Assembly: GCA_030445745.1 (NCBI GenBank)
Contig: JASUTE010000003.1
Location: 78,725-142,724, forward strand
DNA length: 64,000 bases
Origin: Candidatus Cloacimonadota bacterium
GTDB taxonomy: Bacteria; Cloacimonadota; Cloacimonadia; Cloacimonadales; TCS61
Direction of reading: 5' to 3'
The notes under the pieces were generated by a model. That model had not been told where the DNA came from. It made no database searches and worked only from the letters and a program-made list of their open reading frames with translations. This document shows, in pieces, positions 417-46,242 of this stretch. Within the stretch, counting starts at the first letter, position 1; every line of letters starts with the position of its first letter. The translations under genes were made by a program, and so were the position numbers.

Positions 417-718
417 AATACCTCTTGCTTCTAATTTTTTTGGAAATTTGAATTTCTTGCTGGTTTCTGTCAATATTAAAAACAATAAATGGCATACCTC
501 GAAATTTTTTTTAATCTGCTTTTATCGGAGTAGGCATATTAACCAAGATAAGGGAGAAAATATATGGACAAATTCTATTCCACTTTATAAAAAGTGAATA
601 AGCTAAACAAGTTGTGTAAAACAAAAATTGGTTGTTTTAGCAGCAAAAATACCTTAAATTGTTTGCTGATTAGGTTGTAACTTTTTTAATTGAATAAATT
701 AACAAAACAGGAGGCAGA

Positions 719-2911
719 GTGGCAAATTTAATAATCGTTTCGAACAGGTTACCGGTAAAATTACAAAAAAAAGATAATACAATTAAATATGAAATGAGCA
801 CTGGAGGTTTAGCCACTGGCTTGAAATCATTTTATAAAAGTTACAATGGTTTTTGGATTGGTTGGCCTGGGATAGCTAGCAAAGAAATTTCAGATAAGAA
901 AGATGAAATTAAAAATACTCTGAATGAAGAATACAACTGTGAGCCAGTTTTTTTGAATCAGCAAGAGATAGATCACTACTATTTGGGTTATAGCAACAGG
1001 GCGATGTGGCCTCTGTGCCATTATTTTACCCAATTTGTTACCCACGACCTTGAAAATTGGCAAATCTATAAAAAAGTAAATCAGAAATTTGCCGAAAAGG
1101 TAGCTGCAATAGCTAAAGAAGATGATATTGTCTGGGTGCACGACTATCATCTGATGTTACTACCTAAAATGTTGCGACAGAAGCTAAAAAATATTCGTAT
1201 TGGTTATTTTCATCACATTCCATTTCCCTCCTACGAGATTTTTAGATTATTACCCTCCCGAAAGCAGATTTTGGAAGGTTTACTGGGAGCAGATCTTATA
1301 GGATTTCATACCTACGATTATCTGCGACATTTTCTGAGTAGTGTCCAACGATTACTTGGTTATAACAGTAATTTGGGGAAAATTGAATTGAATGAACGAC
1401 TGGTGAAGGTAGATTCTTTTCCTATGGGTATAGATTTTGTCAAATTTTCGCAAGCTGCAGAAAACTCTGAAGTACAAAACAAAATTAAAACTCTGAAAAA
1501 TAAATTGGAAGGACACCAAGTAGTGCTTTCTATCGATAGAATGGATTATACCAAAGGAATTTTACAGCGCTTGCAAGCCTATAGCAATTTTCTTAGGAAA
1601 TATCCGCAATATACCGGCAAGCTCAAATTTATTGTGGTAACTGTTCCCTCGCGTGAAGAAGTAGAACAGTACCATCAGCTAAAAAACAGTATAGAACGTT
1701 TAGTAAGCGAAATAAACGGAGAGTTTGGTATTTTAGGTTGGATGCCGATTTGGTATTTACACAAGGCATTTGATTTTAAAGATCTGGTCGCTCTCTACAA
1801 TGTTTCCGATATTTATGTAGTAACACCGCTGCGTGATGGTATGAATTTGATGGCTAAAGAGTATTTAGCTGCCCGCAACGATAAAAAAGGACTTCTAATT
1901 CTAAGTGAAATGGCTGGAGCTGCTAATGAATTGGGAGAAACCATAATTGTTAATCCTAACAATATTGAAGAGCTGGTAGAAGCAATAAGAGAAGCTGTTA
2001 GTGCACCAGACGAAGAAAAAATACGACGTAATGAAATTATGCGAGAGAGATTAGCCAGATACGATGTGCAAAGATGGGCAGAGGATTTTGTCCAGAAATT
2101 ACTAAAAATGAAAGAACTACAGAAGATGCGACATGCCAATATTTTGAATAAAGCACGAATAGAAAAAATAAGGGAATCCTTCCACAATGCTCAGCAGCGG
2201 CTGCTATTAATCGATTGGGACGGTACTTTGTTACCAATCTCAGAAAATAAGAATAAAATGCAGCCTACTGCAAAAATTAAACATATTTTGCGGAAGTTGA
2301 ACCAAAATAGTAAAAATAAATTAGTAATTTTTAGTCAGGCAGAAAAAGAGATTATGCAGACCTGGTTTAGCGATTTAGAAATCGATATGGTAGCGGCAAA
2401 CGGGGAGTTTGTAAATCTGGCAGGCAGATGGCAACAATTTGATATCTTTGAAAACGACTGGAAGGATGACTTGCGTACAATTTTTCAAGTTTTCGTCGAT
2501 AGAACTCCCGGCTCGTTTTTTAAAGAAAACAAGTACTCCCTTATTTGGAACTACAGCAAAGCTGCTTTCGATTTGGGTGAAATGAGAGCACGCGAGTTAG
2601 TGAATGAGCTGATTAGCGTAACGGCAAATATGGAATTGCAAATCTTGGAGCATGAAAAAGAAATAGAGTTGCGTGCCGGCGGGTTAAGTAAAGAACATGC
2701 CTCTCTTCGCTGGCTTACTTCCAATCAATGGGATTTTGTGCTGGTGATTTCTGATGGTTTGACTGGAGAAAGGATGTTTGAGCATCTTCCCCAAAATTCC
2801 TATACAATTAGTGTAGGAAAACCGCAAAATAAAACCGATTTTTTTGTAAAAAAACAAGAAGTTATCCTCGAATTTTTGGAATATTTAAGTGAGGAGCAAA
2901 ATGAGAATTAA
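719..2911 (+). CDS. otsA: Trehalose-6-phosphate synthase (GT20) fused to a degenerate HAD trehalose-phosphatase-like domain
   Basis: VSNRLP, GGLATGL, WVHDYHL, FHHIPFPS, DRMDYTKG and RDGMNLMAKEY GT20 motifs; C-terminal DWDGTL; GTG start with GGAGG RBS. Confidence 0.92.
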   Translation: MANLIIVSNRLPVKLQKKDNTIKYEMSTGGLATGLKSFYKSYNGFWIGWPGIASKEISDKKDEIKNTLNEEYNCEPVFLNQQEIDHYYLGYSNRAMWPLCHYFTQFVTHDLENWQIYKKVNQKFAEKVAAIAKEDDIVWVHDYHLMLLPKMLRQKLKNIRIGYFHHIPFPSYEIFRLLPSRKQILEGLLGADLIGFHTYDYLRHFLSSVQRLLGYNSNLGKIELNERLVKVDSFPMGIDFVKFSQAAENSEVQNKIKTLKNKLEGHQVVLSIDRMDYTKGILQRLQAYSNFLRKYPQYTGKLKFIVVTVPSREEVEQYHQLKNSIERLVSEINGEFGILGWMPIWYLHKAFDFKDLVALYNVSDIYVVTPLRDGMNLMAKEYLAARNDKKGLLILSEMAGAANELGETIIVNPNNIEELVEAIREAVSAPDEEKIRRNEIMRERLARYDVQRWAEDFVQKLLKMKELQKMRHANILNKARIEKIRESFHNAQQRLLLIDWDGTLLPISENKNKMQPTAKIKHILRKLNQNSKNKLVIFSQAEKEIMQTWFSDLEIDMVAANGEFVNLAGRWQQFDIFENDWKDDLRTIFQVFVDRTPGSFFKENKYSLIWNYSKAAFDLGEMRARELVNELISVTANMELQILEHEKEIELRAGGLSKEHASLRWLTSNQWDFVLVISDGLTGERMFEHLPQNSYTISVGKPQNKTDFFVKKQEVILEFLEYLSEEQNEN

Positions 2912-4097
2912 AACAATTAAAGATTTCTACAATTTTATCTTTGAAACCCGAGATTTTAAAAGAAAACTTCTGAGAAAAAAATTAAATGCTGAAAAAATAA
3001 AAAAATCTGAGATAAAAAAATTGGAAAAATATGTGGTGAAATTGCTGAAAATTCCTCTTGGAGCAGGTAATCATGTTTTGGAATATGCAGAGGGCAAGAA
3101 AACTAATTTGGATCTGTTCTATGAGATAGATGAATTGACCAAAGATGTGATTTTTTTATCTGAAACCGAGAAAAATTTCATGGATTATCTGAATAAAATG
3201 AATGAAGACTTTGAAAATGACGTAGAAACTGGTTTGGAATTTATATCAAAATCAGACATTACAACTTTTATTTCCGATCGTGATGGAACGATTAATAACT
3301 ATTGTGGTCGCTACAACTCTTCTATTCAATCGATCTACAATGCTAGTTATCTTATCGATATTGCCAAAATTTTGGAAAAACCAGTAATTCTTACTTCCGC
3401 ACCACTGCAAAATACTGGGTTCTTAGATATGAACATAATGCCACCTAATTTTTTTGTAATTGCTGGTTCTAAAGGCAGAGAATTTACTTGGAAAAATCAA
3501 TTTTACAAGATGCATTTGGATGAACAACAACAACAAAAATTAAATATTCTGAACCAGAAATTACAAGACTTAATAAATAAGCCCTACTACGAAGTTTTCG
3601 CACTTATCGGTTCGGGGTTACAGTTTAAATTTGGTGAAACAACAATAGCGCGTCAAGATGTTTACAACTCGATTCCACAACAGGATTCCCAAAACTTTTT
3701 GCAAAAAGTAGAAGAAATTGTTCGCAATATCGATCCTAAACAAGAATATTTTTCCATAATCGATACGGGCAAAGATATTGAAATAATTTTACATAAAAAA
3801 GATGCTGGAGTTTCTTCAGAATTCAGCAAGGGTGATGGAATCGAGTTTATTTCTAAAAAAATTGGCTTAAACTTAACAGAAGCAGATAATCTGATATGTG
3901 GCGATACTGCTTCCGACCTGGCTATGCTGGAGTATGCTGAAAAGGTTACTCCAAATAATTATTCTATCTTTGTAACTCAAGATGAAAAATTGAAAGAGAA
4001 AGTTGGGAAATTTGCAAGCAAAAATCTATTTGTAAGTTCACCCGATGCATTAGTAACTATTTTACATAAATACGCTTTGGAAAGGAGTACTAACTGA
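2901..4097 (+). CDS. Trehalose-6-phosphate phosphatase, nematode GOB-1-like HAD family with N-terminal helical domain
   Basis: SDRDGTINNYCGRY, LTSAPL, AGSKGREF, SKGDG and CGDTASDLAM motifs; start moved to ATG 2901 behind GAGGAG RBS; overlaps otsA stop. Confidence 0.78.
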   Translation: MRIKTIKDFYNFIFETRDFKRKLLRKKLNAEKIKKSEIKKLEKYVVKLLKIPLGAGNHVLEYAEGKKTNLDLFYEIDELTKDVIFLSETEKNFMDYLNKMNEDFENDVETGLEFISKSDITTFISDRDGTINNYCGRYNSSIQSIYNASYLIDIAKILEKPVILTSAPLQNTGFLDMNIMPPNFFVIAGSKGREFTWKNQFYKMHLDEQQQQKLNILNQKLQDLINKPYYEVFALIGSGLQFKFGETTIARQDVYNSIPQQDSQNFLQKVEEIVRNIDPKQEYFSIIDTGKDIEIILHKKDAGVSSEFSKGDGIEFISKKIGLNLTEADNLICGDTASDLAMLEYAEKVTPNNYSIFVTQDEKLKEKVGKFASKNLFVSSPDALVTILHKYALERSTN

Positions 4098-7000
4098 TGA
4101 ATTTCAAAGGAGCTATTTTCGATTTAGATGGTGTGATTACCAAAACAGCTAAACAGCATTTTAAAGCTTGGAAAAAGACATTTGATGAATTTTTGGAAAA
4201 ACTGGGAAAAAATGGGGAATTTACTTACGAAGATGATTATCTACCTTATGTGGATGGTAAACCGCGCTATCAGGGGGTGAAATCTTTCTTAGAATCCCGT
4301 GATATCGATTTGCCTTTCGGTTCACCAAAAGATAAAGCTGGTAGCAAAACCATTTGTGCTGTTGGCAATAGGAAAAATGACCTATTTCGCCAAATAATAG
4401 CAGAAGAGGGAGTTGATATCTATCAGAGTACTGTGGATTTCATAACAAAATTAAAAGAAAATGGTGTAAAAGTAGGAGTAGCTTCTTCCAGCAAAAATTG
4501 TAGTTTTGTATTGGAAAAAGCAGGTATTTTACATTTATTCAACACAGTTGTAAATGGGTTAGTTTCCAAAGAATTGGGTTTGCAGGGAAAACCAAACCCC
4601 GATATTTTTACTGTAGCAGCAGAAAATATCGGAGTAAAGCCATACGATAGTTTTATGGTAGAAGATGCTATTTCTGGTGTACAGGCAGGTAAAAATGGCA
4701 ATTTTGGTTTGGTGATAGGTGTAGCTCGCCAATCAGATGCTCAGGAATTGCAGGCAGAAGGAGCTGATATTGTGGTAAGCGATATTGGTGAACTTAGCTT
4801 AGAAATGATTGAAAACTGGTTTGATAAAGGGTTACAGGACGATAGTTGGAATCTTACCTATCGTAAATTTGAACCAGACCAGGAAAAGCTGCGGGAATCG
4901 CTTACAACTGTAGGAAATGGATATTTTGGAACCCGCGGTTGTTTTGTTAGCAGTCAAGCTGATGAAGTTCTGCATTACCCAGGAACTTACATAGCTGGAG
5001 TTTACAACAAACTTACTAGCAAAGTTTATAAGAAAAATGTGGTTAACAACGATTTTGTTAATTGCCCTAATTGGCAGCTTATTAAAATAAAAATTGGTGA
5101 TGATTTTATTGAGCCTCTGCAACAGAATATATTGAATTATGAGCATAACTTGAATATGAAGGATGGATTAGTTACTCGAAAAGTTGTTTTTGAAGATAAA
5201 AAACAGCGTCGTACTAAAATTGAGACAACCAGATTTGCCGCTTTGAAAGACTACCATTATGGCGGGCTGGAATTTAAAATTACACCGTTAAACTATTCTG
5301 AAACAATTAAATTATACTCCACCTTAGATGGCGATATTATAAATTTTGGTGTCCCCAGATATCGCGATCTTAATTCACGCCATCTTTCCCCTATTACCGT
5401 GGGAAAAGAGAAAGAGAAGATCTATTTAAAAGTGAAAACTGTTACTTCGGAAGTTAAGATCTTTATGGAAGCACAACATCAGTTGTATTGGAATGACAAA
5501 AGTTTTGCTGCTGAAAGTGAATTGGAAACCGGCTCTGGTATTGTTTCCGATATTTATACAATAGAAGCTGTAGAAGGAAGCTGCTACCAGATGGATAAAT
5601 TAGTTGGTATTTATACTTCCAAGGATAAAGATATTGATGATTTGAATGATACTTTCAAGAAAAAATTAGCAAAAACCAGAAGCTTCAATAAAATTAAAAA
5701 AACTCATATAAAAAAGTGGCATCAACTGTGGCAATATTCCGACTATAAAATAACTGGAGATCGTTTTACCCAGAAAGCTGTTAGGTTACATATCTACCAC
5801 CTCTATTCAACAGCTAATATCAACAACCAAAACATTGATGCGGGAATGCCCGCTCGCGGATTACACGGTGAGGCATATCGCGGACATATTTTTTGGGATG
5901 AGCTGTTTATCTATCCTTTCTATAATATTCATTGCCCTCAGATTACTCGTGCCCTGCTGATGTATCGTTATAAACATTTAGATGCTGCTAGACAATATGC
6001 CAAGGAAAATGGCTACAAAGGTGCTATGTTTCCATGGCAAACAGCCGATGATGGCAAGGAAGAGACTCAAGAAGTACACTACAATCCAATGTCGGGAAGC
6101 TGGGATCCAGATTACAGCCGTCTGCAACGTCATGTTTCCATAGCAGTAGCTTACAATGTTTGGGAATATTTCTATCTTACCCATGATTTGGAATTTCTTA
6201 TCTACTATGGTTTGGAAATAATGTTGGAAGTTGCCAGGTTTTGGGCTAGTATTGCCAAATTCGACCAAAAAGATGGTAGATATCATATAAATGGTGTGAT
6301 GGGCCCCGATGAATTTCACGAAAAATATCCTGGTGCCAAGCAGGGAGGCTTACAAGACAATGCCTACACCAACATCATGGTCAGCTGGCTTTTGCATAAA
6401 ACTATAGAAACTTATCAGCATCGCGACGAGGAAGTAAGAAAAGCTATCGCTGCCAAAATAGACCTAAAAGAGAGTGAAATTGAAAAGTGGCAGGATATTG
6501 TGAAGAAAATTAACATAGAGTTTTCTGACAACATAATCTCACAATTCAAAGGATATATGAATTTAAATGAATTAGATTGGCAGCATTACAAGAATAAATA
6601 CAAAGATATTCATCGTTTGGACAGAATTCTGAAATCGGAAGGAGATTCTCCAGATAAATACAAAGTAGCAAAACAGGCAGACGTAATGATGACTTTTTAT
6701 ATGCTATCCCCGTCTCAGGTGAAAAATATTCTGGAGATGATGGGTTACAAAGTAGGTAAAGCGCAAAAATTATTAAAGGATAATTATGAATATTACCAAA
6801 AGCGCACTTCCCATGGTTCCACACTAAGTCTTGTAGTACATTCAGCTATTCTAACCTACGTGAAAGAGCATAAAAAACAGATGTGGGAATGGTTCCATAG
6901 AGCAATGCAGAGTGATATTTATGACATTCAAGGTGGTACAACTCAGGAGGGAATTCACACTGGGGTTATGGCCGGCTCTTTAGATATTATCTTCAAGAGT

Positions 7001-7240
7001 TTTGCCGGTATCAATATCTTCCGAGACCATCTACATATTCAGCCTTTTTTACCAAAACATTGGCAGAAACTGGAATTTATGATGTATTACAAACAGAATT
7101 GGCTTAATCTGAAAATTACTCAGCAGGAAATAGAGATTTCAATTAATAAATTTGGAGAAAAAATCTATTTCGAAGTAGAAAACCAAACATATGAATTCAA
7201 AAATAAGAAAAAAATTCAGATCAAATACAAGGCGACCTAA
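4097..7240 (+). CDS. Beta-phosphoglucomutase-family HAD domain fused to GH65 glycoside phosphorylase (trehalose/trehalose-6-P phosphorylase-like)
   Basis: N-terminal FDLDGVIT, GKPNPDIF and VEDAISGV; GH65 motifs GNGYFGTRG, ARGLHGEAYRGHIFWDE, GPDEFHE, KQAD and HGSTLS. Confidence 0.9.
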   Translation: MNFKGAIFDLDGVITKTAKQHFKAWKKTFDEFLEKLGKNGEFTYEDDYLPYVDGKPRYQGVKSFLESRDIDLPFGSPKDKAGSKTICAVGNRKNDLFRQIIAEEGVDIYQSTVDFITKLKENGVKVGVASSSKNCSFVLEKAGILHLFNTVVNGLVSKELGLQGKPNPDIFTVAAENIGVKPYDSFMVEDAISGVQAGKNGNFGLVIGVARQSDAQELQAEGADIVVSDIGELSLEMIENWFDKGLQDDSWNLTYRKFEPDQEKLRESLTTVGNGYFGTRGCFVSSQADEVLHYPGTYIAGVYNKLTSKVYKKNVVNNDFVNCPNWQLIKIKIGDDFIEPLQQNILNYEHNLNMKDGLVTRKVVFEDKKQRRTKIETTRFAALKDYHYGGLEFKITPLNYSETIKLYSTLDGDIINFGVPRYRDLNSRHLSPITVGKEKEKIYLKVKTVTSEVKIFMEAQHQLYWNDKSFAAESELETGSGIVSDIYTIEAVEGSCYQMDKLVGIYTSKDKDIDDLNDTFKKKLAKTRSFNKIKKTHIKKWHQLWQYSDYKITGDRFTQKAVRLHIYHLYSTANINNQNIDAGMPARGLHGEAYRGHIFWDELFIYPFYNIHCPQITRALLMYRYKHLDAARQYAKENGYKGAMFPWQTADDGKEETQEVHYNPMSGSWDPDYSRLQRHVSIAVAYNVWEYFYLTHDLEFLIYYGLEIMLEVARFWASIAKFDQKDGRYHINGVMGPDEFHEKYPGAKQGGLQDNAYTNIMVSWLLHKTIETYQHRDEEVRKAIAAKIDLKESEIEKWQDIVKKINIEFSDNIISQFKGYMNLNELDWQHYKNKYKDIHRLDRILKSEGDSPDKYKVAKQADVMMTFYMLSPSQVKNILEMMGYKVGKAQKLLKDNYEYYQKRTSHGSTLSLVVHSAILTYVKEHKKQMWEWFHRAMQSDIYDIQGGTTQEGIHTGVMAGSLDIIFKSFAGINIFRDHLHIQPFLPKHWQKLEFMMYYKQNWLNLKITQQEIEISINKFGEKIYFEVENQTYEFKNKKKIQIKYKAT

Positions 7241-7345: not shown

Positions 7346-7771
7346 ATGAAGAAGTTACATCTTTCCCAAAAAAATCGCGTTATTGCAGGCGTGTGCGGAG
7401 GTTTAGCAGAATCTTTAGGTATAGATGCTAATATCGTTAGAGCAATTTTTGGTTTATCTGTATTTTTTGGTGGTGCTGGGTTATTCCTCTATTTAGTACT
7501 TATGATAATTTTACCTAAAGATACAAATTACGAGGAAAAGGAGATCATTGATGTAGAGGTTAAGAATAAGTCGGGTAAAATCTATCGCAGTTGGGACAAC
7601 AAGATGATAGCTGGTGTTTGTGCTGGGTTAGCCCGCTATCTAAGCTGGGATGTTAGTTTAGTGCGAATAATTTTTGTTCTGTTATTCTTAAGCGGTGGTA
7701 TAGGCGCTATACTCTATTTAATTTTCTGGTTACTATTCCCTTTAGAAGGAGTAGAGGGTGAAGAGGAGTAA
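7346..7771 (+). CDS. Tandem PspC-domain membrane protein
   Basis: Two IAGVC(G/A)GLA...VR.IF...LYL repeats; start at 7346 behind GGAGG RBS. Confidence 0.88.
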   Translation: MKKLHLSQKNRVIAGVCGGLAESLGIDANIVRAIFGLSVFFGGAGLFLYLVLMIILPKDTNYEEKEIIDVEVKNKSGKIYRSWDNKMIAGVCAGLARYLSWDVSLVRIIFVLLFLSGGIGAILYLIFWLLFPLEGVEGEEE

Positions 7772-8855
7772 AGTATATTTTGTCTCATCGCGTATTTTGA
7801 ACAAAAAGGGGTTGCTGCAGAAATTTTCTGATTTGTTGAAATATTTGCAATTGGATTTTATTAAGCAAGACGATAATGTATTGGTAAAAACACATTTTGG
7901 AGAAGAGGGTAATCATACCTATATCTCACCAATTTTTTTAAGAAAATTAACTGATTACATCAAATCGAAACAGGCACATCCCTTTTTGGGAGACACAAAC
8001 ACATTGTACAAAGGAGATCGCAAGCAGGGAGTTACGCATTTGGAATTAGCCTTACGTCACGGGTTTTCCTATGCTACTTTAAATGCACCATTGGTTATTT
8101 TAGATGGAATTGGCAGTCGCCATTTTAAAGAAATTAAGATAAACGGTAAACACTTTGAAAAAGTGCAGTTAGCTGGTAACTATTTTAGTGCAGATGCAGC
8201 TGTGGTAGTTTCCCATGTAAAAGGGCATGTCTTAACCGCTATGGGAGCTGCCATTAAAAATATTTCTATGGGTTTAGGAACTAGAACTCAGAAACAACGT
8301 ATGCACGGTGATATCAAACCTCAAATTAACCATAAAAAGTGTATTCTATGCCAAAATTGTGTTCGAGTATGTCCCGAAAATGCCATTTCTATTAAAAATA
8401 AGAAAATAGAGATCAACCTGGAGAAATGTGTTGGCTGTGCGGAATGTATCACAATGTGTCCAACTGGAGCTTTAAAAATTCTGTGGAACGAAAAACCACA
8501 GAATACTGCTGAGAAAATGGCTGAAACGGCACTGGCAGCAGTGAAACAAAAAGCCGGAAAAATTTTTTTCTTTAACTTCCTTATCAATATAACTCCAGAT
8601 TGCGACTGTTTAGGCTGGTCAGATAACGCTTTGGTAAATGATATTGGAATTTTAGCATCGCACGATCCGCTGGCTATAGACAAGGCTAGTGTAGATCTCG
8701 TGAATAAGCAACACGCTCTGCCAAATTCGCGAGCTGAAAATACAAAAGGTGATATTCTGGGAAAACAAGATCTGGATCTGGAAGATATGTTTGAATATTG
8801 CCAGAAAATTGGCTTAGGTAACAAAGAATACGAACTGATAGACTTGGGATGGTAA
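7758..8855 (+). CDS. DUF362-domain 4Fe-4S ferredoxin-containing protein
   Basis: KTHFGEEGN, DTNTLY, SHVKGH and PDCDC motifs; two CxxCxxCxxxCP motifs. Confidence 0.88.
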   Translation: MKRSKVYFVSSRILNKKGLLQKFSDLLKYLQLDFIKQDDNVLVKTHFGEEGNHTYISPIFLRKLTDYIKSKQAHPFLGDTNTLYKGDRKQGVTHLELALRHGFSYATLNAPLVILDGIGSRHFKEIKINGKHFEKVQLAGNYFSADAAVVVSHVKGHVLTAMGAAIKNISMGLGTRTQKQRMHGDIKPQINHKKCILCQNCVRVCPENAISIKNKKIEINLEKCVGCAECITMCPTGALKILWNEKPQNTAEKMAETALAAVKQKAGKIFFFNFLINITPDCDCLGWSDNALVNDIGILASHDPLAIDKASVDLVNKQHALPNSRAENTKGDILGKQDLDLEDMFEYCQKIGLGNKEYELIDLGW

Positions 8856-9317
8856 ATGACAATTTTAGCAACTTTGTGCTACTTGCAAAAAAATGGACGT
8901 ACCCTGATGCTTTTTCGAAATAAAAAAGAGAATGATATACATCAAGGCAAATACAACGGGCTGGGAGGAAAATTCGAATCTGGCGAATCCCCAGAAGAAT
9001 GTGCTCGACGTGAAATAAAAGAAGAGAGCGGGTTAACTGCTCAAGTGCTAAATTTAAAAGGAGTTATCTGCTTTCCTAATTTCGATGGTAGCAACGATTG
9101 GTATGTATTTGTATTTTGTGTTCCAAAGTTCAAAGGTAAATTGATAGAATCGCCAGAGGGTAAACTGGAATGGATCGATAACAGTAAATTAAATAAAATT
9201 CCTTTATGGAAAGGTGACTATATTTTTATACCCTGGTTGGGAAAAAATAATTTTTTTTCTGCTAAATTTTGCTACGAAAAAGGGGAATTGAAGTCGCATA
9301 CAGTTGAATTCTATTAA
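8856..9317 (+). CDS. Nudix 8-oxo-dGTP diphosphatase (MutX/MTH1-like)
   Basis: NGLGGKFESGESPEECARREIKEESGL Nudix box; EGKLEW; LWKGD. Confidence 0.88.
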   Translation: MTILATLCYLQKNGRTLMLFRNKKENDIHQGKYNGLGGKFESGESPEECARREIKEESGLTAQVLNLKGVICFPNFDGSNDWYVFVFCVPKFKGKLIESPEGKLEWIDNSKLNKIPLWKGDYIFIPWLGKNNFFSAKFCYEKGELKSHTVEFY

Positions 9318-12300
9318 TGAAAAAACTCTTTATAATATCTTTTACAACTCTGTGTGTATATTTAGCAGCATACAATTTCTATTCTCCGGTATGGCGCTGG
9401 CAAAATATCAATACAGCTGAATCACCAATAAAATTTTCGCAGCAGAGAATAATAGATAACTCTATACATGTTTGGCAAGATAGTACCCTTATTAGTTCTG
9501 AATTTTATGAAGTCGATACTGAAGCTGGGGAAATATCTTTTCAACAGGATATTGGTTTCGTGCGATTAGAGTATGCTATTTATCCACAGGAATTGTTGCA
9601 GGAATATGCGGTTTACAAATCACAACCTATCACAAATAATAAAAAAATCCAAATCAAAAAGCCTTTTTTAGAAGAAATATACGATGATACTCAGCTCAAT
9701 ATTACCGGTAACAAGACTTTTAAGATCTCAGTTGCCAACAACCAAGATTTTACTCTCGATCAATCCCTTTTCCTTAAAATAGATGGTAAACTAGGAGAAA
9801 ATCTATTTATAACGGCACAGCTCACCGACAGTCAATCGCCTATAACACCAGAGGGTGACACTCGCGAAATTAGTAATTTGGATAAAGTTTATCTACGTTT
9901 GTATGGCCAAAAATATGGAATTTCTTTTGGCGATTTGGAAGCCAGTTTTCATAATACTCATTTTATTAATTTCCAAACAAGATTTGAAGGCTTAAAAGCG
10001 GAATGGCTAGGGAAAAATAAAGCTATGGCAGCTTTAGCTGTTTCCAAAGGCAAGCAGACAACCAATACTTTTAATGGAATTGAAGGGAAACAGGGACCTT
10101 ACTACCTTTCTGCTAAAAATATGAATGGCGTGCAAGTGGTATCTGGCTCTGAAAATGTATTTTTAAATGGAAAGCAAATGCAACGGGGTTCCGATTATAC
10201 TATCGATTATGCTGAAGGTAGTATCACTTTTACCAATCAGCATTTTATTAATTCCAACTCTTTCATCCAAGTAGATTTCCAATATTCCGATGAAGAATAC
10301 AGACAGAATATGTATCTGGCAGCTACAGAACTGGACACCTCTACTTTGGGTATTTCGGAGAGATTAAAACTTAATTCTCATATCATTATTCAGAATGATG
10401 ACAAAGATAATCCACTGCAGCAGAGTTTTACCGAAAGTGATAAAGAAGCTTTGCAAGCAGCAGGCGATGACGAAGTTTGGGTTAGCGGAGTAACACAGGT
10501 AGAACCGGGTACAGGTTTGTATATTCAGGTTCAGCAGGAAGACGAAGTTTATTACCAATATGTAGGTAGCGAAGGCGAAGGAGATTTCAATATCCATTTC
10601 AGTTATGTGGGAAGTGGCGGCGATTATGAGCCAGCAGATGAAGGCTATGTTTATGTAGGAGAGAATCAGGGAACATACCTGCCTATCAAACAACTTGTGC
10701 CGCCCCAGTTTCAAGCTAACTACGATTTTGCTTTGTCATATCAGCACAATTGGTGGCAACTAAATATGGAATCGCTGCTTTCCAATTTTGATAAGAATAC
10801 TTTTTCTGAAGTAGACGATGGAGATAATTTTGGGTTAGCCACCTATACAGACTTGCAAATTTTGCCAAATTGGGATAAACTAAATCCCCATTTAACTCTC
10901 GCTTTCAGAAGAACAGAAGATAACTTAGAGACTTTTGCTCCTCTTACTTCTGCCATACAAAATTATCAATTAAATTCACTGCCAGATTCTCTGACTGTGA
11001 ATGAATATGAGCTGGATCTACAAGCAGATATACTGAATCAATTGCAGCCTGCCATAAATTTACAATACAAAGATGCGCAAAAAGTAACACAAAAGTATGT
11101 GAACTCAAAGCTAAGTAGCAGGCAAAGATTCTATTTACCAAAATTGGAGTATGATTTTTTAACCTGGCAACAACATTACAAAGATAACAACCTGAATATT
11201 AGCGGAGCGAACCAGATAGAACTTTTACAGCACAATATAAAAACTACTTACGACTGGGAAAAGATAGTTTGGAACGCAGGTTATTTTTACAAGAAAAAAA
11301 CAAATGATAGCGCTAGCCTTGAATACAACGGAGAAAAACAGAACAATTGGAATAGCAGAATTTCTTATACTGATGATAATAAATTTTCAGTCAGTGTCCA
11401 TTGGACTAAAGAAACCACCGATTCTTTGAATACAGTTTGGAAAAATAAGTTACAAGCTAATACTTATGGTTTTCAAACATTTTGGAATACGCAATCTCAT
11501 CAAATAAATATTGATTTAGCGCGTAGAGACACTCACAAGGACACTTATGACATGGCCGAAATCCGCCTTTCCAATTCACTTTGGAATGATGCGCTAGCTT
11601 CCAATATGGACTACTCACTGCAAAATGTAGAGTTTTATCCCAAACAGCGAGAATTGGTATATGTTGGTGAAGAATATGGACTTTACGACAGCACTGGCAC
11701 TTATGCTGAGGATGGTGAATATATTTGGGAAATTACTGAAGTAGATTACGATAATCCACAACTTTCCATAGAAGTTAATGCCAATTTCAACTTATATTTG
11801 AAACCGGCTAAAGTAACCAATAGTTTTTGGCGTCGCTTTGAAGCTGAGACAAATCTTTTGGTATCAGAAAATTCCAAAAGTACTCATAAAACTTCTGTTT
11901 ATTTGTTGCAACCTGAATATTTAATGCAACCCAATTCAACCCTGTATGGTAAAACTAATTTCTACCAAACTGTATGGCTCGATATTTGGCACCGCAAATT
12001 AACTGGCAAAATAGCTTATCAGCATCAAAAAAGTTTAGATAACCGTTATCAGAACCGGGAAGAATCTTTGCTTTCGGAGTGGGAAACTAGTTTGCGCTCA
12101 CGCTTCATAAGCGGACATGATATCGAGCTTTCCTATTTTAAAAGCAAGGAAGAAGATTCCTATTACAATTCCGATATCTCGGCACATTCATTAAACTTGG
12201 ATATTCGCAGCAAACTACGCACTCAATTTATTTTGAATACAGCGATTAACTACGATAGAGAAGCAGGAGAAAATAGATTAGAGGATGAGGACTATACTCT

Positions 12301-12574
12301 GAAAAGTTGGGATGTAAGTGAAAATATAACATATTTCGGTAACCAAAAGTACCGTTTTGTAGCCCGCCTCTCGTATAGGAGGAATTGGCGAGATGGTTCT
12401 AGTTTTCTTGGTTATTTACCCGAAAAGCGGGAAGGAGACATTTGGAAATGGAAGGCAAGCTGGAACTATCAGATAAACAGCTACACTTCTACAAATTTGG
12501 AATATACTGGTGAAAGTTTCCCTAACCAAAAAGATAAACATGAACTGCAGGTAGAACTGAAAGCTGAATTTTAA
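9317..12574 (+). CDS. Large exported outer-membrane beta-barrel protein, hypothetical (SprA-like elements)
   Basis: Signal peptide; amphipathic beta-strand pattern; C-terminal ELKAEF with terminal Phe. Confidence 0.6.
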   Translation: MKKLFIISFTTLCVYLAAYNFYSPVWRWQNINTAESPIKFSQQRIIDNSIHVWQDSTLISSEFYEVDTEAGEISFQQDIGFVRLEYAIYPQELLQEYAVYKSQPITNNKKIQIKKPFLEEIYDDTQLNITGNKTFKISVANNQDFTLDQSLFLKIDGKLGENLFITAQLTDSQSPITPEGDTREISNLDKVYLRLYGQKYGISFGDLEASFHNTHFINFQTRFEGLKAEWLGKNKAMAALAVSKGKQTTNTFNGIEGKQGPYYLSAKNMNGVQVVSGSENVFLNGKQMQRGSDYTIDYAEGSITFTNQHFINSNSFIQVDFQYSDEEYRQNMYLAATELDTSTLGISERLKLNSHIIIQNDDKDNPLQQSFTESDKEALQAAGDDEVWVSGVTQVEPGTGLYIQVQQEDEVYYQYVGSEGEGDFNIHFSYVGSGGDYEPADEGYVYVGENQGTYLPIKQLVPPQFQANYDFALSYQHNWWQLNMESLLSNFDKNTFSEVDDGDNFGLATYTDLQILPNWDKLNPHLTLAFRRTEDNLETFAPLTSAIQNYQLNSLPDSLTVNEYELDLQADILNQLQPAINLQYKDAQKVTQKYVNSKLSSRQRFYLPKLEYDFLTWQQHYKDNNLNISGANQIELLQHNIKTTYDWEKIVWNAGYFYKKKTNDSASLEYNGEKQNNWNSRISYTDDNKFSVSVHWTKETTDSLNTVWKNKLQANTYGFQTFWNTQSHQINIDLARRDTHKDTYDMAEIRLSNSLWNDALASNMDYSLQNVEFYPKQRELVYVGEEYGLYDSTGTYAEDGEYIWEITEVDYDNPQLSIEVNANFNLYLKPAKVTNSFWRRFEAETNLLVSENSKSTHKTSVYLLQPEYLMQPNSTLYGKTNFYQTVWLDIWHRKLTGKIAYQHQKSLDNRYQNREESLLSEWETSLRSRFISGHDIELSYFKSKEEDSYYNSDISAHSLNLDIRSKLRTQFILNTAINYDREAGENRLEDEDYTLKSWDVSENITYFGNQKYRFVARLSYRRNWRDGSSFLGYLPEKREGDIWKWKASWNYQINSYTSTNLEYTGESFPNQKDKHELQVELKAEF

Positions 12575-42566: not shown

Positions 42567-44201
42567 ATGAAACGTTTATTAATTTTAATGTTTATTTTTT
42601 TGATCTTTACAGCCTGTGAAAATAAGGATGAAGCAGAAGAACCAAACTCTATGGCAGACCTTAGTGTTAGTCCCGATTTTGCATTCAACACAACCAAAAT
42701 TGTTGAATTAAATTTAACCTCGCGCGATGCTAGCGGTAATCTGCAGCCAAATGTACCTTTTTCTATATTCAAAAAAGATCCTGCCACCGCTAGCGGTAGC
42801 AGAGTGCTACGTTCAGCAACCAATGACTTCGGTAATTTTGAAAATACCATAAAGTTACCAGCCTACTACAATAAAATCTATATTCGGCCAGCTGCAAGTG
42901 AAGTCCAAGAATTAGCAATAAATCACTTATCTAGCGAAAATGCCAAAATTGATGCTGATTTTATCTATTCGCCTAATAAGTTAAAGTACAATAAGAACTT
43001 AGATAGCTTCGAACCAGTTACTGCTTCCGATAATGGCTTTGTTTTTACTTTGCAAAATATTGTAGCTGATTATGAAAATAGCACAGCAACCATAACAATT
43101 TCCATAACAAACAACAATAATAAAAAGTTTAAAGATGCTTATTTTACAATACCCTCGAGTGTATTAGCTACGGAAATTGAACCTAACAACACAAATTATG
43201 AATCTCCAGCTGGTATGACTTATTGGGTACAATATCCCGTGAATCATTGGATAATGGGTAATAGCATTGCGTATTATGGAAATAATGGTTTCAAAAATGG
43301 GGAAACAGATTATTATTACATCACACTTCCTTTAGAAGTTTTTGAATTTTGGAATTCTATGGAAATGTATGCTACAGCTACAGGAAATACTTCTGGCCAG
43401 GTAACCCTTGATTTTTCCTATACACCAGAGTTTAGTATGACAGAATACTATCCAGCTGAAAATGAATTTGGTACATTAGCCTATGAAGACTATTGGCCAC
43501 AGCAGGGTGATTATGATATGAACGATCTGGTAATAGATTACAATATGAGTCTTGAGAAATCTTATGTTGGTGATTTGGAAACGATATTTGCCCAATTCAA
43601 CATTAGAGCCATAGGAGCAAGTTATACAATAGGTTTTGGCTTTCAGCTTCCCGATTTTATCCAGGTAAATGGTAATGTGACCTCCACTAGCGGCTTAGCT
43701 TATGTAGAAGCAGATAATCGTACCATAGTGCTATTCGATGATGCCCGTGATATAGTTACTGAAAATTCCGATCAGTTTATAAATACCGACCCTGCTCTAC
43801 CCTACATCGAAACCAGCGTTATGACCATATCTATTCCTGTGGTAAGCTCCGATAATAATACCGATGAAGATTGGTTTTTGCCACCCTACAACCCATTTAT
43901 CTTCGTTAACGAGCGTGCCAAAGAAATTCATTTGGCAAACTTTCCACCAACAAACCAGGCAGATCTTACATTATTCAATACACAAGATGATGCTTCCGAT
44001 CCTGTTTCCGATTATTACTATAGAACAGCAGCAAATCTACCTTGGGCATTTCATATAGCAGAATCCTCCTTATACCCTATCGAGAAAATCCAAATTATTC
44101 AAGCTTTCCCTGAATTTTACCAATGGGCAGAATCGGAAGGTAACCAAGCTACCGACTGGTATACCTTTCCCGATGAAAACTTAATATACCCAGTACCTTA
44201 A
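42567..44201 (+). CDS. LruC/DUF4842-domain lipoprotein (paralog 1)
   Basis: Lipobox FTAC; AYEDYWP.QGDYDMNDLVIDY, RAIGAS, YNPFIF, EIHL and LPWA motifs. Confidence 0.85.
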   Translation: MKRLLILMFIFLIFTACENKDEAEEPNSMADLSVSPDFAFNTTKIVELNLTSRDASGNLQPNVPFSIFKKDPATASGSRVLRSATNDFGNFENTIKLPAYYNKIYIRPAASEVQELAINHLSSENAKIDADFIYSPNKLKYNKNLDSFEPVTASDNGFVFTLQNIVADYENSTATITISITNNNNKKFKDAYFTIPSSVLATEIEPNNTNYESPAGMTYWVQYPVNHWIMGNSIAYYGNNGFKNGETDYYYITLPLEVFEFWNSMEMYATATGNTSGQVTLDFSYTPEFSMTEYYPAENEFGTLAYEDYWPQQGDYDMNDLVIDYNMSLEKSYVGDLETIFAQFNIRAIGASYTIGFGFQLPDFIQVNGNVTSTSGLAYVEADNRTIVLFDDARDIVTENSDQFINTDPALPYIETSVMTISIPVVSSDNNTDEDWFLPPYNPFIFVNERAKEIHLANFPPTNQADLTLFNTQDDASDPVSDYYYRTAANLPWAFHIAESSLYPIEKIQIIQAFPEFYQWAESEGNQATDWYTFPDENLIYPVP

Positions 44202-44222
44202 ATGCACTCTATTTTTTCTTTT

Positions 44223-44253
44223 AAGGGTAATTTGAAAAAATTACCCTTTTTTT
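44223..44253 (+). terminator. Intrinsic terminator
   Basis: AAGGGTAATTT-GAAA-AAATTACCCTT followed by a T tract. Confidence 0.85.
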
Positions 44254-44524
44254 ATTATAATCGGACATCCCCATTCCCTTATTCCAATTTTTATTAAATC
44301 CCTCTGTAGTAGCTTGATAACAAGTTTTGTTGAAATAAATTTAGCTAGTAGATTAATAGCTAAAAACTTCAATTGCCCATTTGCGGTCGGCTCTAACTAC
44401 CTGTAAAAAATATTATTAGTTGACATTTTAAATAAAAAAAACTTTCTTTTATCAATAGTGGGCATGAAGATAAAAAAATGTTAGTTCTTTTTCCAGATTT
44501 TTTCAATCTGACGTATTTTTTGCT

Positions 44525-44541
44525 TTGGTATAAATAATGCA
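44525..44541 (+). promoter_or_regulatory. Putative sigma54 (-24/-12) promoter
   Basis: TTGGTATAAATAATGCA, GG-N10-GC spacing, about 40 nt upstream of ATG 44581; same 5' flank (TTTTTGCTTTGG) as the site at 42513. Confidence 0.6.
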
Positions 44542-44580
44542 TTTTATTCTTAAGATGTTAGGAATATGTAGGAGGTCATA

Positions 44581-46242
44581 ATGAAAAAAGCTATTGGTTT
44601 ATTTTTATTTGTATTACTTATAGTTGTTGGCTGCGATAATACAGAGGAAGACAACTATCCTACTAACATGCAAGGGCTGAATGTTAGTCCCGATTTCGAT
44701 TTTAATACAACCATGCAAGTAAGTGTGAAGTTAACCTCGCAGAATGCAAACGGAGAGGTAATTCCTAATGCACCTTTTTCTTTGTACAAAGAAAATCCAG
44801 CTTATTTGGAAGATAAACGCATTATTCGTGCATCCACGAATAACGAAGGTGATTTTGAAGATATAATAGTGCTTCCTAATTATTACAGAAAATTATATAT
44901 ACAGTCGGGAATAGGAGAGATACAAGAACTTTATTTGAATATTATTGGAACAGAAGAAGCAGAAATAAACGCTTTTTTCACCTACGATCCTACTGATATT
45001 AAAGGCTTAAGTAAATTTAAAATATCTGACAAATTTGAATCTGTAACTGCTTCCGATAATGGGTTTGATATAACTTTGCATACAATCTTTTCTAGCACTT
45101 TTAATGCTACTTTTGTTTTTTCTGTTACCAACAACCATCCTTTTGGATTAGATACTGTTAAATTTGGTCTACCAGCTAATTCCGAAGCTAGCTATCCCAC
45201 CGATGGCGAAACTTATACTTCACCAACCGAACTTTATACTTACAACATAGAAAACCCAACCGATAATCCTTTCCGGGCCATAGCCTTCGAAACTATTGGA
45301 GAAGGATATAAAAATGGAGATTCCGATTTCTTTATCTACACAGTTAATCTGGCTTATTTATCTTCTTGGGATAATGTTCAAGTATTTGCAAAAGCAGGTA
45401 CTCAAACGGGTCAAGTTACCCTAAATTTCGATTACAATTTCAATTGGTGGTTTAGTTGTCAGATAAGTTATCCCAGTGAAACTGAATATGCTACCCTTGC
45501 TTTTGAAGATTACTGGCCACTGGAAGGTGATTATGATATGAACGATTTGGTAATAGATTATAACTTCACCGTAAAATATAAAGATGACACTCTTATTAAA
45601 GAAATCATATTAGCCAAGTTTCATTTGCGGGCTATTGGAGCTTCCTATCATTTAGGTTTTGGATTCCAGCTTCCTGAAAATTTAGAAGTGAATGGAGATA
45701 TTACCTCTACAAATGGTTTAGCTTATGTGGAAGCAGATAACCGAACTATAATTTTATTCGATGATGCCCGCGATGTTATTCCTGATAATCCGGGACAGTT
45801 CATAAATACCGACCCTACTTTGCCCTATACTCCCACTTTTGTAATTGGCCTTGCCATTCCAGTGGAAGATAATTGGTGGGAAATAGTGCAGATGGGTCCT
45901 TGGAATTGTCCACCTTACAATCCATTTATTTTTGTTGGTCAGCGTTCACACGAAATTCATCTTGCTAATTACCCACCCACTCTTCAAGCTGATTTTGAAC
46001 TTTTTGGAACAGATAATGATGCTTCTGACCCAGAATCAGATGTCTATTATAGAACTACAGAAAATCTTCCCTGGGCTTTTAATATAGGAGAAAGCACCGT
46101 TTACCCCATAGAAAAAACTGCTATTATTCAAGCTTTTAATTATTTTGCTGCCTGGGCAAACAGCGATGGTAACAATTATCAGGATTGGTATAAAGATGAA
46201 CCAGGCTATCGCAATAATGATTTGATCTATCAAGAACCATAA
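44581..46242 (+). CDS. LruC/DUF4842-domain lipoprotein (paralog 2)
   Basis: Lipobox VVGC; AFEDYWPLEGDYDMNDLVIDY, YNPFIF, EIHL and LPWA motifs; GGAGG RBS. Confidence 0.85.
   Translation: MKKAIGLFLFVLLIVVGCDNTEEDNYPTNMQGLNVSPDFDFNTTMQVSVKLTSQNANGEVIPNAPFSLYKENPAYLEDKRIIRASTNNEGDFEDIIVLPNYYRKLYIQSGIGEIQELYLNIIGTEEAEINAFFTYDPTDIKGLSKFKISDKFESVTASDNGFDITLHTIFSSTFNATFVFSVTNNHPFGLDTVKFGLPANSEASYPTDGETYTSPTELYTYNIENPTDNPFRAIAFETIGEGYKNGDSDFFIYTVNLAYLSSWDNVQVFAKAGTQTGQVTLNFDYNFNWWFSCQISYPSETEYATLAFEDYWPLEGDYDMNDLVIDYNFTVKYKDDTLIKEIILAKFHLRAIGASYHLGFGFQLPENLEVNGDITSTNGLAYVEADNRTIILFDDARDVIPDNPGQFINTDPTLPYTPTFVIGLAIPVEDNWWEIVQMGPWNCPPYNPFIFVGQRSHEIHLANYPPTLQADFELFGTDNDASDPESDVYYRTTENLPWAFNIGESTVYPIEKTAIIQAFNYFAAWANSDGNNYQDWYKDEPGYRNNDLIYQEP

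Follow-up and report, generated by a model that had tools for sequence, protein, structure and literature searches.

Why should the gene for a two-domain OtsA-OtsB protein be followed, in overlapping reading frames, by a second phosphatase of another lineage and by a phosphorylase of the same pathway? This arrangement occupies positions 719 to 7240 of the window analysed here, a 64,000-nt stretch of a Candidatus Cloacimonadota genome (assembly GCA_030445745.1, contig JASUTE010000003.1, positions 78,725 to 142,724). Three open reading frames (ORFs) of the same strand encode OtsA, a trehalose-6-phosphate (T6P) synthase of family GT20, fused to an eroded OtsB-type domain (gene 1); a GOB-1-like HAD phosphatase (gene 2); and a beta-phosphoglucomutase (beta-PGM)-family domain fused to a GH65 enzyme of T6P-phosphorylase type (gene 3). 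These identities, named in the original prediction for this DNA, were borne out by Pfam and NCBIfam profiles and by PDB matches. We conclude that genes 2 and 3 are a conserved module, likely making trehalose, a stress sugar, from glucose-6-phosphate (G6P) without a nucleotide sugar; here it is preceded by an OtsA with a probably dead phosphatase domain, likely a second source of T6P.

The phosphatase and phosphorylase module

A scan of GTDB genomes by two conserved motifs yielded 444 loci; the counts given here refer to the best 80, from 79 genomes. The beta-PGM/GH65 gene lies directly downstream of the phosphatase gene in 58 of the 80 loci (or 57 of 74 when at least 600 bp of downstream sequence is required); the same order is seen in 49 of the 62 metagenome loci long enough to show it. 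In 21 genomes the locus lacks a GH65; a close GH65 (at least 40% identity) lies elsewhere in 19 of them, one has a distant match only and one has none; the phosphatase and a close GH65 are both present in 77 of the 79 genomes. OtsA-OtsB stands directly upstream in just three of the 80 loci, all from Cloacimonadota, and within 8 kb in nine; GT20 was detected in 40 of the 79 genomes. The three-gene set put forward originally as the unit to look for was therefore not what this neighbourhood search recovered: the conserved unit is the phosphatase with the beta-PGM-T6P phosphorylase, and OtsA is optional.

Fusions of the same activities were found as well. Euglenozoan proteins of Diplonema and Flectonema join GH65 to the phosphatase in a single chain, in which the phosphatase motifs are intact and the GH65 has the T6P fingerprint described below, and phosphatase-beta-PGM fusions occur in a metagenome-assembled genome (MAG) of Polyangiaceae. 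Separately, proteins of 1000-1450 aa from a eukaryote-type clade (P0254, P0228, P0237, P0242, P0246, P0247 and P0251-P0253), one of them from the dinoflagellate Biecheleria, carry a degenerate GH65-like region followed by an intact phosphatase. Spirochaete-type loci (L010, L024, L027, L062, L102, L108 and L133) are larger clusters, in which the phosphatase and beta-PGM-GH65 genes are preceded by OtsA-OtsB, an alpha-amylase-like gene and, in most cases, a gene the size of TreS-Mak.

The product of gene 2 matches both T6PP_N and T6PP_C above the Pfam cut-offs. Its best PDB match is the T6P phosphatase (TPP) of Brugia malayi (4OFZ, E 3e-36), and its AlphaFold model (pLDDT 91) resembles 4OFZ with a TM-score of 0.85. 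Shared with nematode GOB-1 and the Brugia enzyme are the fold, including the helical N-terminal bundle, and the four HAD motifs, all intact (D126, D128, T165, K310, D335 and D339). Five Brugia residues, Y221, Q332, K334, D336 and R337, were reported as those whose loss most lowers kcat (PMC4081830); the first three have equivalents in gene 2 (Y134, Q241 and K243), and D336 and R337 are absent. With all HAD motifs and three of the five Brugia residues kept, specificity for T6P is likely, not certain. The suggestion that a different TPP lineage has replaced OtsB is upheld.

The T6PP N-terminal domain was described in 2014 as restricted to nematodes and Mycobacterium (PMC4081830). We found 1101 relatives, mostly bacterial where named. 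Nematode members, free-standing or fused to GT20, form a clade of their own in a quick unrooted tree, which covers 182 of 218 domains with every second genome locus omitted, leaves many forks open, and neither roots the phosphatase family nor names a transfer donor.

In gene 3, the beta-PGM domain has intact HAD-IA motifs (DxD, S, K and ED) and matches beta-PGM structures in PDB to E 8e-51. The N-terminal, middle and C-terminal Pfam domains of GH65 are complete, the best PDB match is 9LB6, and the catalytic acid is the same in all 40 of the homologues aligned. Specificity in this family was assigned by De Beul et al. (2021) to six positions (64, 392, 394, 402, 416 and 585 in CsKP), which read TRIGPP in trehalose phosphorylase; a Caldithrix enzyme reading DQGQDE was predicted, then shown, to make T6P from beta-glucose-1-phosphate (beta-G1P) and G6P (PMC8537180). 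Mapped through the alignment with 3WIQ, the gene 3 fingerprint agrees with that of Caldithrix (T6P phosphorylases, subgroup 22) at five of six positions, matches TRIGPP at none of six, and is also unlike the kojibiose (EEAPxx) and maltose phosphorylases. All 51 complete GH65 sequences of the genome loci read DQ[ASC]QDE, 48 as DQAQDE and three as DQSQDE or DQCQDE. Because the fingerprint is of the Caldithrix T6P phosphorylase type, the GH65 of gene 3 is predicted to act on T6P, not on trehalose.

A GH65 of this type bears on the claim that the cluster encodes a self-contained cycle of synthesis and recycling. Profile searches of the genome (99.3% complete) found no second GH65, TreS, TreY, TreT or GlgE, and no GH37 trehalase, GH15 trehalase N-domain or EIIC of the phosphotransferase system (PTS); each domain of the cluster is single-copy, save for one distant HAD. 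Since no second GH65, trehalase, TreS, TreT or EIIC was found, trehalose has no visible way back to T6P, and the cycle is not supported. A PTS-fed operon of the treB-trePP-pgmB kind does not fit either, as PF02378 (EIIC) was found in none of 40 genomes, i.e. the 39 module genomes without GT20 and this one (control, 7 of 14).

The module may work as follows. Beta-PGM would convert G6P to beta-G1P, and the GH65 T6P phosphorylase, running in the synthetic direction, would join beta-G1P to G6P, yielding T6P and inorganic phosphate (Pi). The GOB-1-like phosphatase would then cleave T6P irreversibly to trehalose and Pi and pull the chain, for a net conversion of two G6P to trehalose and two Pi. The interconversion of two G6P with T6P and Pi would lie near equilibrium, which we use as a plausibility check only; the phosphatase would thus set the direction. 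In the window, OtsA could open a second, driven entrance to the same phosphatase, making T6P out of G6P and of UDP-glucose supplied by a PF01704 enzyme (see below). A phosphatase shared in this way would render the fused OtsB domain redundant, and it could then erode. When T6P and Pi are high, the phosphorylase might run backwards instead and serve as a valve. The order of the genes, their domains, the state of key residues and their co-occurrence are observed; all activities and the direction of flux in this scheme are our inference.

The valve could also be the main role of the phosphorylase: OtsA and the GOB-1-like phosphatase would make trehalose, while beta-PGM and the phosphorylase return excess, toxic T6P to two hexose phosphates. 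The recycling of the original prediction would then survive for T6P alone. This is in line with the intact OtsA motifs, the existence of a UDP-glucose source, the degradative role known in physiology for T6P phosphorylase (TrePP) with beta-PGM (PMC12125463) and the reported toxicity of T6P build-up in nematodes and mycobacteria. Still, a valve cannot explain the module in the 39 of 79 genomes, and in all 83 Chlorobiaceae, where GT20 was not detected; an efficient phosphatase would keep T6P low, favouring synthesis; and no route from trehalose to T6P was found in the genome. We regard this alternative as unlikely.

Several points weigh against synthesis of trehalose by the module. The beta-PGM domain scores 119.7 bits with TIGR01990, below the equivalog cut-off of 189.4. 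Most of the genomes are MAGs, related genomes do not count as independent, and the counts come from the best 80 of the 444 loci. Among the protist fusions, several have degraded beta-PGM motifs, and two, that of Artemidia and that of a Euglena mutabilis cluster, have a dead phosphatase. In genomes with OtsA, this one included, the phosphorylase could work in either direction. GT20 is not the only family with a T6P synthase, as the GT4-family enzyme of Sulfolobus shows (PMC7688234), so absence of GT20 is no proof that a T6P source is lacking. Finally, G245/E246 stand in gene 2 in place of Brugia D336/R337, and all 120 of the homologues listed have G and Q/E at these two sites. The last point could mean that the phosphatase acts on another sugar phosphate and that some other alpha-glucoside is what the module produces or handles; with a T6P-specific GH65 fingerprint, a proven TPP as the best structural match and OtsA and TreS genes recurring nearby, such a substrate is highly improbable.

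Among the closest known systems are the trehalose utilisation pathway of Lactococcus lactis, with TrePP (EC 2.4.1.216, GH65) and beta-PGM, and the assayed T6P phosphorylases of Caldithrix abyssi and Ca. Kuenenia; the module shares with them a GH65 fingerprint of T6P-phosphorylase type and a partner beta-PGM. The module differs from the L. lactis pair in that beta-PGM is fused to GH65, that no PTS supplies T6P and that a T6P phosphatase is the constant partner; the last two differences point to the synthetic direction. The mycobacterial OtsB1 (Rv2006, 1327 aa), which we take to hold a beta-PGM-like HAD domain, a TPP domain and GH65 in one chain, would have a TPP of the classical lineage, unlike the module. 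Its function is given as unknown (PMC11046441).

In vitro, T6P phosphorylases are reported to make T6P from beta-G1P and G6P (PMC11442529, PMC13121652), and the combination trePP, pgmB and otsB in L. lactis is given in PMC6942593 as an engineered route to trehalose. The engineered strain (Carvalho et al. 2011) and the in vitro T6P cascades present the same three activities in synthetic use; the L. lactis route differs in being engineered rather than natural and in its classical OtsB. Reviews count five routes of trehalose synthesis and call TrePP degradative. Full-text searches of open papers returned no description of the combination as a natural pathway, nor do the portions consulted of PMC13597711, PMC13237430 and PMC9324843 describe the module. 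None of the enzyme types is new, and the three have been combined by engineering; as a natural pathway the trio is undescribed in the literature searched.

On balance we lean towards a natural route to trehalose, free of nucleoside diphosphate sugars and additional to the five known, whose range would take in anaerobic bacteria, protists and some archaea. For green sulfur bacteria it would be the sole source of trehalose and, via TreS-Mak-GlgE, the entry to glycogen, while the window would record a merger of pathways in which the module gained OtsA, whose own phosphatase eroded. Running forward, the module would need no UTP or ATP beyond G6P, which would suit energy-poor anaerobes. It would also set the 'nematode-specific' phosphatase family in a large bacterial context and hint at what three-domain proteins such as OtsB1 do.

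Green sulfur bacteria

We collected 83 Chlorobiaceae genomes of at least 95% completeness. The phosphatase and a close GH65 are each present in 83 of 83, and GT20 is found in none of the 83 (3 of 14 control genomes were positive). In nine genomes with both matches on a large first contig the two genes are adjacent by coordinates, and the catalytic motifs are kept in all of the 30 loci fetched for each gene. Four single-contig genomes have TreS-Mak next to GlgE; TreY, TreT, OtsB and GH37 were not found in these four, and a GH15 trehalase N-domain match is present in two. GlgC did not exceed the cut-off in any of five Chlorobiaceae genomes searched.

TreS is reported to consume trehalose whenever maltokinase is expressed (PMC11046441), and Prosthecochloris and Chlorobaculum to accumulate trehalose (PMC7824335); Chlorobiaceae therefore need a trehalose source. 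The only T6P-forming enzyme found in them would be the phosphorylase run backwards, GT4-type synthases and trehalose kinases not having been searched for. If correct, this assignment would explain trehalose, and probably glycogen, in green sulfur bacteria that lack OtsA and GlgC.

An unrecognised source of T6P in all these genomes, such as a GT4-type synthase, a trehalose kinase or an unusual transporter, would make the module a branch point for T6P, in which the phosphorylase is catabolic. The Sulfolobus synthase gives this idea a precedent, and one Chlorobiaceae locus (L290) has a GT4-like gene beside the second GH65. No such gene recurs in the neighbourhoods of the module; the phosphatase is linked to the phosphorylase and mutase, not to a synthase, by their shared location, by fusion and by the classical TPP that takes its place. 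We therefore find a hidden source improbable, and prefer synthesis by the module.

A second GH65 and a second phosphatase occur in this family. The common second GH65 is of kojibiose-phosphorylase type (EEAP motif) in seven of the nine fetched sequences (L289-L295), the other two being extra copies of T6P type; the GT4-like gene of L290 comes after a GH65 of the kojibiose-phosphorylase type. In 12 of the 83 genomes a second full-length GOB-1-like phosphatase lies away from GH65 (L224-L234, L236, L238 and L298); that of L298 is 3' of metal ABC-transporter-like genes.

OtsA and the fused OtsB-like domain

Gene 1 combines PF00982 (GT20) with PF02358 (Trehalose_PPase) and scores 909 bits with PRK14501, the bifunctional OtsA-OtsB family (cut-off, 634). 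Its best solved relatives are fungal Tps1 and OtsA. The GT20 half exceeds the cut-off of TIGR02400, and its catalytic motifs, whose roles we take to be those in Escherichia coli OtsA, were all located (Table 1). Neither GalU nor GlgC was found in this genome, so we considered an OtsA with no UDP-glucose donor; this was dropped, as a eukaryote-type UDP-glucose pyrophosphorylase (PF01704) is encoded at G000:C33:102393-103613 (L335). PF01704 is present in 9 of 12 Cloacimonadota tested and in 0 of 14 control genomes.

Compared with a bifunctional OtsA-OtsB of intact motifs, the phosphatase half of gene 1 is different. It keeps 6 of 12 catalytic or substrate positions of an intact homologue and falls short of the set found in active OtsB-type TPP (DxD, SGR, EHG, cap E-K/H-R, motif III K and GDDxxD). 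Against the Tps2 structures of Candida, Aspergillus and Cryptococcus, the arginine of SGR, the histidine of EHG and the second aspartate of motif IV are gone. With only six of the 12 key positions retained, the domain is probably inactive, as the original prediction had supposed. It is full-length and free of stops or frameshifts.

A further idea, that the eroded domain is a retained regulatory or scaffold subunit and that the three proteins assemble in a complex, starts from the likeness to fungal Tsl1 and Tps3 raised in the original prediction. In those proteins the synthase and phosphatase halves are both inactive and bind catalytic subunits; in gene 1, by contrast, the synthase half is intact. 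The full-length state of the domain and similar erosion in the closest relatives (L004, L083 and L085) would be expected of a retained subunit.

Among 177 Cloacimonadota genomes of at least 85% completeness, 13 have GT20 and three a GOB-1-like TPP. In these three the fused OtsB keeps 6, 7 and 10 of the 12 positions, with loss of cap and motif IV residues here. In five others the OtsB nucleophile is changed (D to N), and each has a fusion of beta-PGM to a classical TPP beside a T6P-phosphorylase-type GH65, within the OtsA cluster in three and elsewhere in two; a non-orthologous classical TPP thus occupies the slot of the GOB-1-like enzyme in five Cloacimonadota. The remaining five have no second-TPP or GH65 genes in the OtsA locus (three were checked genome-wide), and all five keep 11-12 of the 12 positions. 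Erosion thus goes with a second TPP, and by different substitutions. In 15 of 23 such fusions from other genomes with the module (a subset of the 40 with GT20), OtsB keeps DxD and no fewer than 11 of the 12 positions and so stays essentially intact, which speaks against a general rule of erosion and against a conserved scaffold.

Within Cloacimonadota, these data suggest that OtsB erosion tracks the second TPP, through redundancy and relaxed selection and not through a regulatory function; the association is a pattern and not a test, because kin are not independent. A pseudo-phosphatase subunit of the Tsl1/Tps3 kind is hence not supported, and we give it little credence. Complex prediction for the phosphatase with residues 545-1047 of the GH65 protein scored 0.00, which is evidence neither way.

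Layout and surroundings of the cluster

The tight packing noted originally was confirmed (Table 1): genes 1 and 2 overlap by 11 nt (ATG at 2901, TAA at 2909-2911) and genes 2 and 3 by 1 nt (TGATG at 4095-4099). Besides the motif listed for gene 1, Shine-Dalgarno-like GAGGAG and AAGGAG precede the starts of genes 2 and 3. An upstream GTG at 2889, called by the ORF finder as the start of gene 2, was rejected as it stands 5' of the ribosome-binding site.

Table 1. Coordinates of the cluster features in the window
Feature	Position	Strand	Details
Shine-Dalgarno-like AGGAGG	709..714	+	before the GTG of gene 1; from sequence
Gene 1	719..2911	+	GTG start, 730 aa; OtsA (GT20 T6P synthase) fused to eroded OtsB-type domain
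OtsA domain	725..2101	+	residues 3-461; motifs SNR, GG loop, HDYH, HIPFP, DRMDYTKG, PSR, DGMNL..KEY present
Fused OtsB-like domain	2159..2908	+	DxD kept; SGR to SQA, EHG to ANG, cap K/H/R lost, GDDxTDE to SDGLTGE
Gene 2	2901..4097	+	ATG at 2901, 398 aa; GOB-1-like (T6PP_N + T6PP_C) HAD phosphatase
Gene 3	4097..7240	+	1047 aa; beta-PGM-family HAD domain fused to GH65 T6P-phosphorylase-type enzyme
Beta-PGM-family domain	4106..4816	+	D9, D11, S130, K165, E189, D190; TIGR02009 over cut-off
GH65 domain	4844..7237	+	D319-Q648-A650-Q658-D672-E848 (DQAQDE); predicted catalytic acid E739 in GPDE motif

We infer co-transcription of the three genes solely from their packing. Scans for promoters and terminators around them gave results at or below chance, and RNA-labelled runs held scattered pieces of the contig only, which is no demonstration of transcription. 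The runs holding pieces are mainly oil-field and subsurface metagenomes and may be the origin of this DNA. A contig from another run covers the whole window with two differences, both outside the fused OtsB domain; the window DNA may come from it. The closest named relatives are Cloacimonadota MAGs.

The cluster is followed by a gene with a double PspC domain (7346-7771) and a DUF362/4Fe-4S gene (7758-8855); a DUF362-like gene is also near the module in L003, L050, L066 and L077. Farther on, positions 9317-12574 encode a protein of 1085 aa whose start resembles a signal peptide and which matches no Pfam family at E 1e-8, and positions 42567-46242 hold DUF4842 genes, two in tandem.

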